From: Waterburya sp.
GTDB lineage: Bacteria > Cyanobacteriota > Cyanobacteriia > Cyanobacteriales > Xenococcaceae
Direction: 5' to 3'
DNA length: 64,000 bases
Assembly (NCBI GenBank): GCA_965217895.1
Contig: CBDCJV010000002.1
Coordinates: forward strand, 2,784,001 to 2,848,000
Below, piece after piece: positions 58,779 to 64,000 of this stretch; within the stretch, counting starts at the first letter, position 1; the number at the start of each line of letters is the position of its first letter. A program made the translations under genes and the position numbers. The notes under the pieces are model-generated. The model ran no database searches, was not told where the DNA came from, and saw nothing but the letters and a program-made list of their open reading frames with translations.

Positions 58779-60005
58779 ATGGATGTAGAATTACAGATTC
58801 TTAAACATTTGAAAAGAGATGCTCGACCAACAGTTTCTGTCATCGACAAATATTGCTCTGCTTACAATGACTTGTTTTCTGATGTGAGAAGTTACGAATG
58901 TTTCAAATATTTACATCAAGGAATCATCTCACCAATCAAAAGGAAATCACTACCAGAGATAGCAAAGGTAGTAGGGATAAACTCACCGCAATCATTACAT
59001 CATTTTTTAGCCAATTCACCTTGGTCAGCAACAAAATTAAAAGAAAAAAGATTAACTCTAACTTTAGAAGCTTTAAAAAATCAAAAAATTAAAGTCATAA
59101 TCGATGAAACGGGAGACAGAAAGAAGGGAAAGAGAACAGATTATGTAGCTAGACAATATTTAGGTAGTGTCGGCAAAATAGACAACGGAATAGTATCAGT
59201 AAATGCTTATGGAGTTTATGAAAATATAACTTTTCCCTTGATTTTTAAAGTCTTCAAACCCAAAGGAACATTGAAAGAGGTAGACAACTACAAAACTAAA
59301 ATTCAGCTAGCCTCATCTATTATTACAGAACTAGTGGAATTTGGATTTAATATTGATTTGGTATTAGCGGATAGTTTGTATGGCGAAGCTAGTTCATTTA
59401 TTAGAACATTGGATAAACACGACCTACCTTGGGTTCTAGCAATTAGAAGTAATCACGGTGTTTGGCTGTCTTCTGAGCAAAAGGTTAGAGCCAATAAGTG
59501 GTGTAAATTCAAGAGAATTTTTAGTGACCAAAAAGCGGTGCGACCCCGCGCCGACGTAAGGCGCAAGGGAACGCGCACCAAGACATCTGAAATCAGATAT
59601 ATCAGAGAGATAATTTATGGCAAACGAAATAGAAAAACTTATTGGGAAATAACTACTGACACTGAAACTATGCCAGAGAATTCTACTTCTTTCGTAATGA
59701 CCAATATTCAAGCAACCCGAAGTCAAATGAAAAAGACTTTGGGCAATTTATACAGATTAAGAACGTGGGTTGAATATGGATTTAGACAATGTAAACAAGA
59801 ACTGGGATGGACTGATTATCGATTTACTAATTTTTCAGAGATTAATAAGTCTCTAAATAACTTCCGTTTAATCATTCAGCCAACAATTCTTTTCTGGATG
59901 ATTGTTCCTTGGTTAGAAGTCTTTCCCAACCGTTCTTTATTACTTGGTTTTCATCAATTGATTGCTGTAATGAATCAATTTTATTTCTCTTTTCCTGATG
60001 GGTAA
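58779..60005 (+). CDS. IS701 family transposase, probably defective
   Basis: IIDETGDRKKG, QYLGSVGKIDNG, LADSLYG, VEYGFRQCKQELG; carries a 17-aa insertion and an apparent C-terminal internal deletion. Confidence 0.88.
   Translation: MDVELQILKHLKRDARPTVSVIDKYCSAYNDLFSDVRSYECFKYLHQGIISPIKRKSLPEIAKVVGINSPQSLHHFLANSPWSATKLKEKRLTLTLEALKNQKIKVIIDETGDRKKGKRTDYVARQYLGSVGKIDNGIVSVNAYGVYENITFPLIFKVFKPKGTLKEVDNYKTKIQLASSIITELVEFGFNIDLVLADSLYGEASSFIRTLDKHDLPWVLAIRSNHGVWLSSEQKVRANKWCKFKRIFSDQKAVRPRADVRRKGTRTKTSEIRYIREIIYGKRNRKTYWEITTDTETMPENSTSFVMTNIQATRSQMKKTLGNLYRLRTWVEYGFRQCKQELGWTDYRFTNFSEINKSLNNFRLIIQPTILFWMIVPWLEVFPNRSLLLGFHQLIAVMNQFYFSFPDG
59534..59584 (+). repeat. 51-bp small dispersed mobile repeat, copy 2 (in-frame in the transposase)
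   Basis: Near-identical to 27671-27721. Confidence 0.85.
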
Positions 60006-60017
60006 ATTCTGTTTTTG

Positions 60018-61057
60018 CTACTCCTTGATTTCGGAGAGTGACAGAACAGGGTTAAGTACCTGGGCAAAATTAATTGTATATTTTGTGCCGAAATTTTTTA
60101 AAACCTTTTCGACATACTCAACTAAATTTTTCCAGCTCAAGTATGCCTCCGTTTCAATCCACTCATATTTCATAAATCTCCAGAGAATCTCGCTCAAATT
60201 AAGTTGTGGTGAATAGGTCGGAAACCAGAATATTTCCAATTTTTTCTGTCTCCATTCTGTGATTTTTTTCTGAAAAGCTTTGCTTCGATGAATGGGAGCA
60301 TTATCTATAACTATTACTGTGAGTTTTTTGATTTTTTGAACATATTGGTCGAGAAATTTTATCACGATATCACTATTGATTTTGCATTCAAAAATATAAG
60401 ATTCTAATTCATTATTTCTATTGAGTAAACCTAGGACATTTAATCGTTTACTTTGTTGACTTTTTAAAGCTTCTTTCTCTCTAGATGCTTGCCAGGCGTA
60501 AGGTACATATGGTGTCAAACAAAACCCAGTCTCATCCAAATATCTTAAGTCTAGAGTTCCTTGTTCTGATAGTCTTTTTAAGCCTGCCAATATCTTTTTT
60601 TTCTCTCGTACAACTCTGGTTCAGGTTTTCCTCGAACTGTTTTTCTCAATCTTTTCCATTTCATTCCCAGACACTTTAAAACTCTCTTAATTGTGTCTTT
60701 ACTTGCTCTGATACCCCATTTGCTGCAAATTTTTTCTTGAACCACTACTAAGTTTTTAGGGGTTTCTTTTACCCAGTCTTTAATAATTTTCTGTTGCTCT
60801 TTATCAAAGATTTTTTTTCGTCCTTGACCTTCACGATTATATAGTCCAACTAAGCCTAGCGATTCCCAATTATTCAGCCAATTGTAAATTGTGTTCCGAC
60901 TGACTTTAAATATTTCCATCAACTCGCAAATTCGATATTTTTGATGAGAAAGTAAAATACAATGGCTTCTTTGCCTTACTTGATAGTATTTACTCTGTTG
61001 GTAAATTCTTTTTAAGAGTTTAATAGTATCTTTTGTTAAACCTTTGATATATCTCAT
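60018..61057 (-). CDS. IS630 transposase split in two ORFs (HTH 60578-61057; DDE 60018-60590) joined by a -1 frameshift
   Basis: YLDETG, VIDNA, YSPQLN..E; A8G run at 60594-60602 at the ORF junction. Confidence 0.85.
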
Positions 61058-61191
61058 TTAAGATTTATTCTCCTTTTCACTTTCTTGAGCGATCGCCACA
61101 GAACATTTGGCGATCTTTCGAGGATAACTCCCTCAATATAATCCTCTCAAACTTTCTTAAAAATATACAAATAATTTTGTTTGAGTACTTA
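60053..61191 (-). mobile_element. IS630 family insertion sequence
   Basis: TIRs TAAGTACCTGGGCAAAATTAAT / (revcomp) TAAGTACTCAAACAAAATTATT with TA ends. Confidence 0.85.
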
Positions 61192-61242
61192 TTTAGTTAC
61201 ACAGCACTGATAATCTTTTTGGCTTAAATCTAGATACCTTAA

Positions 61243-61419
61243 TATCAGATAGGCGATCGCATTCCTGGAACTATAGGAAAGGTTGTCAGCAAAACTTATT
61301 CATATCAAGGTAAATGGGTTTACTGCATTGCTTTTGATGAAGGCTTTTTAACCATCACAGAAAATGATATTGATGTATCAATCATCTCCCGTATTAAAGC
61401 CAAAAAAATAACCGCCTGA
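61243..61419 (+). pseudogene. Small gene remnant (SH3/KOW-like start P*YQIGDR)
   Basis: 58-codon open frame YQIGDRIPGTIGKVV...W.Y preceded by in-frame TAA; next to the IS630 end. Confidence 0.35.
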
Positions 61420-61700
61420 TGAGTATCGTCATGTGGACAGGCGATCAAAACATTTAGATGTATGAATGTCGCGGTGGTGTCCAAAGCCAACGTATGGGTA
61501 TAGTTTGGGCTTTTGTACGGAAATAAGCCAGTAGTTTATTAACTGTATTTAAGCAGTTGACTCAGAGCTTTCAACTTTCATAAGCCAAGATACTCATTAA
61601 AAATCGCGAGAATAGCGTGCTTTTAGAGGGAAGAAAGCTTGATGTATCGAGCTTTCGGGAGTTTCGTAAGCCAGACCGCGATTATTTTTCCTTAACTCTT
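61410..61700 (+). ncRNA. Candidate IS110 bridge RNA region
   Basis: Nested stems around an internal loop containing TTAGAGGGAA, identical to 62925-62934; three GRGCTTTY-N7-9-RTAAGCCA units. Confidence 0.55.
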
Positions 61701-61707
61701 AGTATAT

Positions 61708-62928
61708 ATGAATCGAATAGTAGGTTTAGATGTCGGTCGTGGATCGGCTGTTTTCTGCTGCCTTGATGAATTTCCCAGCAATATTCTACAGCATTACCAA
61801 AAGTTAGTTAAAGAGAAAAAATTTTATAAAGCTAATTGTTCTAGAACTGGTGTAGAAAAACTACTTTCACTATTGCCTGATGGCATAGTAATTGAACCAA
61901 CGGGCTATTGGTATTCAGAATTTTGGGTGACGGTCGCCAAAGCCAACGATCTTAAAATCTATTGGATAGGACACACAGATTTGAAAGGTCAACGCACTCA
62001 TTACGAATTCACCAACAAGCGGGATGAAGAAGACGCGCTGTGTTTGGCAGCTTGCTATTTCGATCCTAGCTTTATTGACATCAACGGCAACAAAAGGTTT
62101 CTTAGGCTTACCCACAACGAAACAATTAATCTTGTTCGACAATTGTTCCACCAAAAAGAGCAACTGCAAAAATTACGAACTAGTTTAATTCTTCATTTGC
62201 GTCAGAGATTAAGCTTAGAATTTCCAGAGGCAGCGCGTCACACGATGAAAATATCTGACTCAAAAGGCTACACTCCTATCATTTACTGGCTAGCTACCGA
62301 ACAAAAAAATAAACGATACGAGAATAAATATAGTCAGTCAATTGCACCAGAACTAGGAATTAACATTACTAATTACACTCGCGCTCACGCTCAAATTATT
62401 ATTAAAATTGAGGTTCGCATTGTTAAAACCATTTCTCAAATTGCCAAGACAATCGCTTTACCTGAGTTTGATGACTATAACCGCGTGTTTAATAGGTTTT
62501 GTTTTGGGCTTAATACTCGTGCCATACTCCTAGTTCACGTTTTCCCTATCAATAGATTTTTAGTTAATGAAAAACCATTGGTAGAATATGAACCACGTAA
62601 AGGCAAATTACAAAAGCGTAATCGCTCCTTACGTAAGTTTCAGGCTTATTTGGGATTGTCTTTCAGTTATGAAATATCTGGCAATAGCAAAAAGCGTAAA
62701 TTTCATGGCTCATCTTTAGTTCGTTCTCATCTTTATGGATGGGCTTTATGTTTGGTTACTCGCCAAAAAAATATTATTGGTGGTCAAATTGGTCAAAAAA
62801 TTAGCGATCGCTATCATCATCTAAAGCAAACAGTAAAAGGTAAAGATAGTATCACCAGAATATTGTTCAAGGTAACGCGAATGCTTTTCTATGAATTAGT
62901 AAATGAAATTTATAACAAAAAAGATTAG
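61708..62928 (+). CDS. IS110 family (DEDD RuvC-like) recombinase, divergent
   Basis: IVGLDVG, IEPTG, KRDEEDA acidic motifs; C-terminal AYLGL...EISG putative catalytic Ser region. Confidence 0.8.
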
Positions 62929-62950
62929 AGGGAAAAGTTTCACAAATACA

Positions 62951-64000
62951 ATGGCAATCAAAAGATCTTCTGACTCATCTAACTCAACCCCAAAACAGCC
63001 ATTTTCGACCCGCCAACGCCAATCTGAACCAGACTTGATGTTGGCACAGGCAAATCAGGAAGAAAGGGAAAATACTGAAGATAAAATTCGTCCTCAGCGA
63101 TTATCAGACTATATCGGACAAAAGGATCTTAAGGGAATTCTTAATATTGCGATCGCAGCAGCCAAAGGTAGACAAGACTCTTTAGATCATCTGCTGCTGT
63201 ATGGTCCTCCTGGGTTAGGTAAAACCACCATGTCTTTGATCTTAGCCACAGAAATGGGAGTCAACTGCAAAATAACCTCCGCACCAGCCTTAGAACGTCC
63301 CAGAGATATCACAGGACTACTGGTAAATCTTCAGCCAGGAGATATTTTGTTTATCGATGAAATTCATCGCCTAAATCGAATGACGGAGGAATTACTTTAT
63401 CCTGCTATGGAAGATTTTCGTCTTGACGTTACTATTGGTAAGGGACAGACCGCCAAAACCCGCAGTATTCCTTTATCTCCCTTTACTCTTGTGGGTGCAA
63501 CCACTAAAGCTGGTTCTCTTTCTTCGCCATTGCGCGATCGCTTCGGTATTATTCAAAGACTCCGCTTTTATGAGCTTGATGAACTAACTTTAATTGTTAA
63601 ACGCACTGCAGAAATTATTAGTACAACGATAACAGAATCAGGGGCGATCGAAATTGCTCGTCGTTCTCGCGGCACACCCCGTATTGCCAATCGCCTGTTA
63701 AGAAGGGTTAGAGACTATGTAGAGGTGCAAAAAGCCGAAATCATTACCGCAGAATTGGCAGCCACGGCAATGGATCTGTTTGATGTGGATCGAGAAGGTT
63801 TAGATTGGACAGATCGCTTGGTATTAAACACTATTATCAAACAGTTTAATGGTGGACCTGTTGGCTTAGAAGCGATCGCTGCTGCTACAGGAGAAGATCG
63901 CAAAACTATCGAAGAGGTTTATGAACCATATCTGTTGCAAAACGGTTATCTGAGTCGCACCCACCGAGGCAGAATGGTTACTGCTAAAGCCTACGAACAT
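62951..64000 (+). CDS. ruvB: Holliday junction branch migration helicase RuvB (runs off the window)
   Basis: Not in the ORF track; ATG 62951, [48 protein letters not shown]. Confidence 0.95.

Follow-up and report, generated by a model that had tools for sequence, protein, structure and literature searches.

The 64,000-nt stretch of Waterburya sp. DNA analysed here (the window; contig CBDCJV010000002.1, positions 2,784,001 to 2,848,000) carries, directly upstream of ruvB, an intact IS110-family recombinase gene preceded by a two-loop RNA of the bridge RNA type. This locus is very probably the orphan right arm of a 10–13 kb cyanobacterial prophage-like element that uses the recombinase as its integrase. 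Sequence comparison reveals matches between all four guides of the RNA and DNA, the boundaries and donor joins of related elements, a hammerhead motif at the 5' end of the RNA, and covariation between one guide and the leader of the recombinase gene; the recombinase appears to be used as an RNA-guided, retargetable integrase. The first-pass annotation of the window had described an IS110 element with a donor-binding loop next to its recombinase gene. The family assignment stands and the compact insertion sequence does not, a target-binding loop, the hammerhead and long upstream cargo having been overlooked.

Within the donor-binding loop are the outer stem AATCGCG (61602–61608)/CGCGATT (61677–61683) and an inner hairpin, GAAAGCTTGA/TCGAGCTTTC (61633–61656), both present as first annotated. 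The 10-mer TTAGAGGGAA lies in the loop at 61623–61632 and again at 62925–62934, across the recombinase stop codon (TAG, 62926–62928), while GGGAGTTTC occupies the 3' side of the loop at 61657–61665. The right end of the element is at 62934, 16 nt upstream of the ruvB ATG at 62951, as had been proposed, and element 3' remnants elsewhere in the genome end at the same place. A nearer conserved helix, GCTT (61619–61622)/AAGC (61668–61671), closes the donor loop, so that the guide strands are 61623–61633 and 61656–61667. Taken alone, the 10-mer is modest evidence: it occurs 26 times in the 5.3-Mb genome, and 509 of 20,000 random 300-nt windows have some 10-mer in common with 62905–62950. Folding of 61560–61760 is no better than that of shuffled sequences (z 0.44), and the outer stem is missing from the resulting minimum free energy (MFE) structure; the stem does form when 61473–61710 or 61598–61710 is folded. 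Open loops are not favoured by unconstrained folding of the window RNA, and an Rfam scan of the window returns no bridge RNA or hammerhead match.

Covariation between loop and right end across homologs lifts the donor-loop match above chance and bears out its assignment to an IS110-family bridge RNA. The comparison covers 13 close loci, spread over 10 genomes that belong to a single genus; L013, L014, L015, L011, L030 and a paralog in the window's genome (paralog B) fall outside it, the fixed flanking patterns being inapplicable or the RNA absent. The 8-nt left donor guide is found at the element's own right end in 13/13 loci, representing seven distinct guides, and in none of 130 non-cognate pairs. 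The closing stems of both loops form in all 13 loci, with changing sequence. In relatives, neither the 10-mer nor the 8-mer occurs within 300 nt upstream of ruvB (0/29), and no recombinase remnant precedes ruvB in these 29 genomes.

The target-binding loop has the same build as the donor loop and lies upstream of it. Its right guide predicts the five bases to the right of the core at 54/60 positions in 12 loci, compared with 23.0 ± 4.3 in a permutation null (maximum 45 in 100,000); G005, whose right end is joined to a left end, was omitted from this test. The left target guide followed by ACCCC is located 8.5–11.6 kb upstream in eight of the 10 loci with 20 kb of flank, and in only one of 118 non-cognate pairs. 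The two misses are the window and G020a. In G020a the left end is that of another G020 element, and the one that belongs to G020a is found ~10.5 kb upstream of the other's recombinase; this reciprocal arm swap between two resident elements (G020:C1:5153961, G020a left part; L063, L102, L201) explains both the one other miss and the one non-cognate match. Bounded elements span 9.8–12.8 kb. The position of the left ends thus points to 10–13 kb prophage-like elements that depart from the classical compact IS110 plan of ~1.5 kb, with a recombinase only and, inside the left end, an RNA driven by a junction promoter.

In all eight bounded elements the left end starts AA-ACCCC, for guides of the form GGGAGTTT and GGGTGTTT alike, and in the same eight the base before AA is identical in target and donor guide, in agreement with a 3-nt core (GAA here). 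As the left ends read ACCCC with either A or T as the fourth guide base, that base would be unpaired, and the right donor guide probably pairs with one base bulged. The junction first predicted, TTAGAGGGAAACTCCC, is one base too long; the correct form is ...GAGG-GAA-ACCCC, not ACTCCC. With joins written left donor (LD)-core-right donor (RD), and LT for the left target, the join LD-AA-ACCCC is directly visible in three contigs (L091, L093 and L094). The genes listed for L093 (11,143 nt) are all of the element type and stand in permuted order, and L094 (11,092 nt) has element markers on either side of the join. The sequence common to both sides of the junctions is 3–5 nt long, and the right donor sequence is constant across elements. 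Two candidate left ends were rejected: CGAAACTCCC, in its nearest occurrence upstream of the window copy (C2:2778147), has no matching left target, and an ACTCCC-like segment of the leader lacks the AA core, the true ends being without the extra base.

The recombinase itself is a well-supported member of the family. It matches NCBIfam NF051857 (transpos_IS110_2) over its full length with 389.8 bits (cut-off 180) and falls just under the cut-offs of two Pfam IS110 models (PF01548 E 7.9e-6). D8, E63, D106, D109 and S324-G325 are invariant in 63 sequences, and S324-G325 aligns with the SG motif of ISCro4, which contains the C-terminal conserved serine. The ten best fold matches of its AlphaFold model (predicted local distance difference test, pLDDT, 92.5) are ISCro4 and IS621 recombinases (E 7e-9 to 6e-8, 15–16% identity). 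A 16-sequence profile missed IS621 in the PDB and a 63-sequence profile found it. Single-protein scans of genome contigs and viral contigs gave no match, and alignment-based searches did. Relatives are present in 26/61 related genomes, and a profile search yielded 79 loci, nearly all titled cyanobacteria.

A CCGC-CUGAUGA-stem II-GAAA-stem III-UH-GCGG hammerhead motif lies directly 5' of the bridge RNA. A strict scan finds such motifs upstream of 21/66 recombinases and in 0/793 control windows, and a tolerant pattern finds them in 40/65 loci compared with 3/780 controls, at least two of the latter matches starting by chance upstream of the genuine motif. The position is constant, distant cyanobacteria included: the predicted cut site lies ~180–300 nt before the start codon, directly 5' of the first stem of the RNA. 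In a covariation analysis of the stems, 98.6% of cells are paired and 9/15 pairs show two-sided change (0/500 shuffles); the rows are 18 of the 21 strict matches plus the window, and thus were selected for pairing. Homologs have the type I core C3 U4 G5 A6 N7 G8 A9, G12 A13 A14 A15, U16 H17, and their best Rfam hammerhead scores (23–29.8 bits) are under the cut-offs. G12, the general base of the hammerhead (PMC12192606), is present in 11/16 parsed loci (A in two, three not parsed). It is retained in all eight bounded elements and in G005, and is A in the window (61447) and in the broken paralog B; by eye, L002 and L009 also have A at this position, in a damaged core. Given this replacement of the general base, the window ribozyme is probably inactive, and A12 may represent either decay or a shared lineage variant. 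The strict genome scan missed the window's copy.

The hammerhead may also help to explain how the RNA is produced. The IS621 bridge RNA is made from a junction promoter (PMC11208160). Because the RNA lies 8.5–11.6 kb from the left end, a junction promoter could not make it in this family, and hammerhead cleavage of an early transcript would be the simplest source of its 5' end. A promoter scan was at chance level and placed none upstream of the RNA on the plus strand. Upstream of the RNA is a small early gene of ~65 aa, from a family present in 10 loci, and its TGA stop (61417–61419) falls within the hammerhead core.

The right donor guide is also complementary to a segment 9–17 nt before the recombinase start codon, with 6/6 pairs in 12/13 close loci; this complementarity often runs through G-U pairs, which suggests RNA–RNA pairing. 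In registers chosen without using the fourth (bulged) guide base, that base and the leader form A-U in 15/20 loci and U-A in 31/37, and are compensatory in 46/58; three further loci have U-G, and the one locus with C gave no register. The base that covaries with the translation-initiation region is the same base that does not pair with donor DNA. Predicted energies are −21.9 kcal/mol for the guide-leader form, −25.1 for the MFE and −18.5 for the open loop. The pairing may plausibly be a switch through which translation of the recombinase, or maturation of the guide, is tied to protein binding, in either direction.

Alternatively, the hammerhead may be a generic prophage transcript-processing ribozyme and the guide-leader match incidental, neither serving the bridge RNA. 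Hammerheads near prophage integrases are known (PMC3088659), no motif is detectable in 25/65 homologs, the window copy lacks G12, and the guide-leader conformer is not the MFE; however, such a ribozyme would not be expected to hold a fixed place 5' of the first stem across distant cyanobacteria, at an RNA beyond the reach of a junction promoter, nor would an incidental match be compensated at precisely the base left unpaired with donor DNA. This alternative is unlikely, though far from negligible.

Several variants of the RNA region deserve mention. In the hammerheads of L143, L146, L152, L161 and L210, which both scans missed, stem II or III is extended by a long, branched insertion. The homologs L104 and L106 have a GC-rich hairpin in place of the hammerhead. 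Tandem duplications occur within the RNA at L013 and L149, and short palindromic insertions (GGCGCG...GCCGCC type), apparently tolerated, lie in or beside bridge RNA stems at L091, L027, L028 and L009.

Among the loci listed, the elements share a gene order, which runs from lysis and unknown genes in a leftward operon through a small tyrosine recombinase, a ~240-aa protein, a helix-turn-helix (HTH) repressor, small rightward genes and the RNA to the IS110-family recombinase. A complete copy is present in the window's genome (L081, C2:3922313–3933790, minus strand, 11.5 kb), in which the hammerhead is intact, both loops are present and each of the two ends is cognate. Its proteins include an endolysin (PF00959), a Phage_integrase domain and HTH_3, and 14 of its 17 open reading frames (ORFs) have no meaningful match. 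At least two marker genes are found in 21/28 loci with at least 8 kb of upstream sequence, some of which repeat loci used for building the markers. Two more partial copies of the late operon, with no recombinase nearby, lie at G000:C2 near 4.9–10.2k and 3473–3481k.

The element is likely a virus. The endolysin, the repressor, a divergent late-type operon and a collagen-like long protein favour this view, as does a conserved 212-aa late protein, the only late protein folded, whose predicted structure (pLDDT 74) has two jelly-roll domains and matches PM2 P1, SH1, STIV A223 and PR772 at Z 7.8–8.1. Its neighbours in the ESM Atlas are dominated by viruses, although weak by the tool's own scale; a second late protein has no neighbour there above 0.85. 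The fold matches are middling and mixed, the top one (Z 9.2) being to spore appendages, and this is one reason to consider that bridge recombination is correctly described and the cargo is instead a satellite, an integrative plasmid or a tailocin-like module. Such a cargo would also account for the lack of profile matches to a capsid, terminase or packaging ATPase among the 17 ORFs of the complete paralog (a Zot/pI ATPase is likewise unmatched there, remote homologs being possible), for the lack of any match in 50,697 phage records, and for the mere two matching IMG/VR contigs. Against the lysis, repressor, late-operon and jelly-roll evidence, a non-viral cargo is the less probable account, yet one that retains some weight.

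The tyrosine recombinase could be the true integrase, with the IS110 module a passenger at the end of the element. The enzyme is a ~190-aa catalytic domain with R, K, HxxR and Y motifs and lies upstream in 17/28 long loci. This is very unlikely because RNA guides specify the two boundaries, the sequence common to the junctions is limited to 3–5 nt, with no common string beyond 7–10 nt within 60 nt, and the donor join is exactly LD-core-RD. The enzyme may resolve circle dimers or help excision.

By its sequence, the window copy is an orphan right arm that has kept an intact recombinase and lost its left arm, and it probably cannot excise as a unit. Upstream of its RNA lie relics of two cargo genes (61190–61419), beyond which are an IS630-like and an IS701-like element and a gene for a host glycosyltransferase; downstream is ruvB. 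The genome has four AA-ACCCC left ends, none of them with the window's guide. Two sequencing runs of one sample, possibly the source, give single contigs across the RNA region and the ruvB junction and no excision joint, which contigs could miss. A compact stand-alone IS110 with a left end starting (G)AAACTCCC near the RNA, as first predicted from the guide's reverse complement, GAAACTCCC, and in keeping with the lack of cargo genes upstream in the window, is scarcely credible, since LT-AA-ACTCCC with fewer than two mismatches is not found in the genome, real left ends read ACCCC at 8.5–11.6 kb, and relics of cargo genes are in place.

In addition to the second recombinase and the unmatched capsid, terminase and packaging ATPase, five sets of observations weigh against an orphan arm of an RNA-guided prophage-like element. 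First, the 13 close loci are kin and not independent, so the counts overstate the statistics, though guide changes follow end changes. Second, in the distant clade, where a cruder pattern parser was used, donor matches number 25/44 for cognate and 89/1772 for non-cognate pairs, and one further left end (L139) was found within flanks limited to 10 kb. Third, the three contigs with a visible donor join have no terminal overlap, so a free circle and a tandem arrangement are both possible. Fourth, of eight empty sites reconstructed, only one could be aligned over its junction within the window's genome (~68% identity); in this single site the 8-nt left and 6-nt right parts are identical. Fifth, for the window copy itself, GTACGG-AA-ACCCC has no exact occurrence in the genome, and neither of two one-mismatch matches is at an element end; the right target matches at 2/5 positions in register, or 4 with a one-base shift in the A run; and no empty target was found near ruvB in relatives, the predicted empty 12-mer giving 25 matches in 17/39 genomes, compared with 20 for a reversed control, none beside ruvB.

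From these comparisons we infer transcription, cleavage, recombination activity, regulation and virus particles along the following lines. An early-operon transcript would run through the small genes into the hammerhead, which would cut after GUC and free the 5' end of the two-loop bridge RNA. The target loop, which varies from element to element, would read a chromosomal site of 6 nt + AA + 5–6 nt, and the donor loop would recognise LD-AA-ACCCC at the junction of the circle, one of its guide bases being bulged. The circle would then be inserted by recombination at the 3-nt [G/A]AA core, often within a host gene's leader. As long as the RNA is attached to the recombinase mRNA, its right donor guide may pair with the translation-initiation region and so couple translation or RNA maturation to protein binding. 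A broader joint reading is tentative, its chances falling somewhat short of even: these elements would be widespread, undescribed, small non-tailed temperate cyanobacterial viruses with an RNA-programmed integrase and a guide that the hammerhead cuts from the early transcript, retargeting between lineages to the leaders of different host genes, keeping the guide inactive by pairing of its donor strand with the ribosome-binding region of the recombinase until protein binds, and, through repeated insertion and recombination among resident copies, leaving right-end scars ahead of core genes and a shuffled chromosome.

Features of the window locus, with coordinates in the window, strand and basis of assignment
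Feature	Coordinates	Strand	Basis
IS630-like element, where the rest of the virus-like element would be; flanking, outside the system	60054..61191	-	
Relic of the element's ~120-aa early-region gene, 50 nt	61190..61240	-	90% identity to C2:3926677-3926627 within the complete paralogous element
3' part of the small ~65-aa early gene preceding the RNA	61241..61419	+	91% identity to two paralogous loci
Type I hammerhead ribozyme motif	61412..61474	+	Stem I CCGC/GCGG; CUGAUGA 61416-22; predicted cut after C61470; G12 (61447) = A
Target-binding loop	61507..61586	+	Target guides: left, GTACGG-AA at 61515-22; right strand at 61571-81
Donor-binding loop	61602..61683	+	Donor guides: left, AGAGGG-AA at 61625-32; right, GGGAGTTT at 61657-64, with A61660 predicted to be bulged
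Leader segment with complementarity, G-U pairs counted, to the right donor guide and its bulged base	61695..61700	+	Located 13 nt ahead of the start codon
IS110-family bridge recombinase, 406 aa, intact	61708..62928	+	NCBIfam NF051857, alignments and fold model
Element right end, made up of left-donor sequence that overlaps the stop codon and the core GAA (62932-34)	62925..62934	+	
Right target flank, the 16-nt leader of ruvB	62935..62950	+	Guide match only with a one-base shift

Other remains of these elements are scattered through the genome. Seven short recombinase 3' remnants (G000:C2 near 721.7k, 915.8k, 1590.5k, 1828.1k, 2268.2k, 3001.5k and 410.5k) end at the donor motif, and in four cases the distance to the gene that follows (hemE, cysK, a SUI1/YciH gene or psbQ) is 7–36 nt. 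Many relatives have similar remnants. Such retained right-end scars suggest that the right end may supply expression signals to the host gene. Orphan left ends (AA-ACCCCAC) are present at G000:C2:4439493, 2739411 and 3749081. The first has 99.6% identity to the complete element over 694 nt, and the last is preceded by the donor-like TTAGATAG. The left end at 2739411 lies next to the left flank of the psbQ site; as the right scar of this site is 2.3 Mb distant, a rearrangement is implied. Paralog B (G000:C2:839768-840972) is a broken, distant recombinase (29% identity) preceded by the same small gene and A12 hammerhead as in the window, and the gene just after it is, as we take it from the translation, probably a peroxiredoxin. 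Several relatives (L033-L055) carry upstream of ruvB a conserved GTAC-containing motif that is missing from the window copy and presumably resembles the cyanobacterial LexA box. Within the window, 58779–61191 holds an IS701-like transposase followed directly by the IS630-like element, which is split into two ORFs, matches Pfam DDE_3 and HTH models, has inverted ends and is found in a partial second copy. A 60-nt insertion-like palindrome near 59532–59585 has very high depth in sequencing runs and is probably a miniature inverted-repeat transposable element.

The family may offer a bridge recombinase that naturally moves 10–13 kb, with all four guides readable, and its many natural guide-target pairs for one enzyme family form a test set for large-cargo programmable insertion, featuring a [G/A]AA core, a bulged guide and a cyanobacterial origin. 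It may show how nature produces a bridge RNA at a distance from the circle junction, and it yields a model, open to testing, of the way guide activity is coupled to recombinase translation. It also points to unclassified cyanobacterial proviruses that annotation reduces to 'IS110 transposase': NCBIfam NF051857 names a transposase only, with nothing on RNA, cargo or targets. A literature search, whose scope excluded subscription papers and preprint supplements, found no description of a bridge RNA, a hammerhead and a prophage-like element in combination. In its available text, one preprint (10.64898/2026.10.21.760802) treats IS110, bridge RNA and hammerhead separately and gives no gene context for its hammerhead cluster, with which overlap is possible.

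Each part of the system has known counterparts. Similar to prophage hammerheads (Perreault et al. 2011, PMC3088659), the motif has a consensus core and three stems and, like those of prophage transcripts, lies near an integrase gene. However, here it is at the 5' end of a guide RNA, and 'transposase' occurs 0 times in the available text of that paper, whose supplementary alignment may include some of these motifs. The Neisseria Nf and Thermus filamentous proviruses (PMC11437467) are likewise virus-like elements with an IS110-family gene at one end that is thought to be the integrase. Unlike those inoviruses, the elements described here have an endolysin and, among the 17 ORFs of the complete copy, no Zot/pI match, and guide RNA, retargeting and ribozyme are absent from the account in the available text. 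Expanded cargo-bearing IS110 elements, published in 2026 (bioRxiv 10.64898/2026.08.14.744561), are also far above 1.5 kb and mobile as whole units under ~20 kb. As described in the available text, where the terms 'cyanobacteri' and 'ribozyme' have 0 occurrences, they arise by progressive accretion, mostly of plasmid DNA, and have half-matched boundaries, whereas the window family has a conserved gene order and four matched guides.

The closest relatives in mechanism are IS621 and ISCro4 (structures PDB 8wt6 and 9t56), bridge RNAs having been established by Durrant et al. 2024 (PMC11208160). The IS621 RNA has a target loop followed by a donor loop, with 8–9 nt on the 5' side and 4–7 nt on the 3' side (PMC11208160). 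The window family has the same DEDD and serine recombinase, an RNA upstream of the gene with a 5' stem, target loop and donor loop, top strands of 8–9 nt and bottom strands of 4–7 nt, and a predicted short core and circular donor junction. However, its 406-aa recombinase is only 15–16% identical to these enzymes and its core is [G/A]AA, not CT. Unlike IS621, its RNA lies 8.5–11.6 kb from the left end, and it combines a probably bulged right donor guide and putative guide-leader pairing with prophage-like cargo. The ribozyme in the available text of PMC11208160 is an engineered hepatitis delta virus ribozyme, whereas the bridge RNA of the window family has a natural hammerhead motif at its 5' end.
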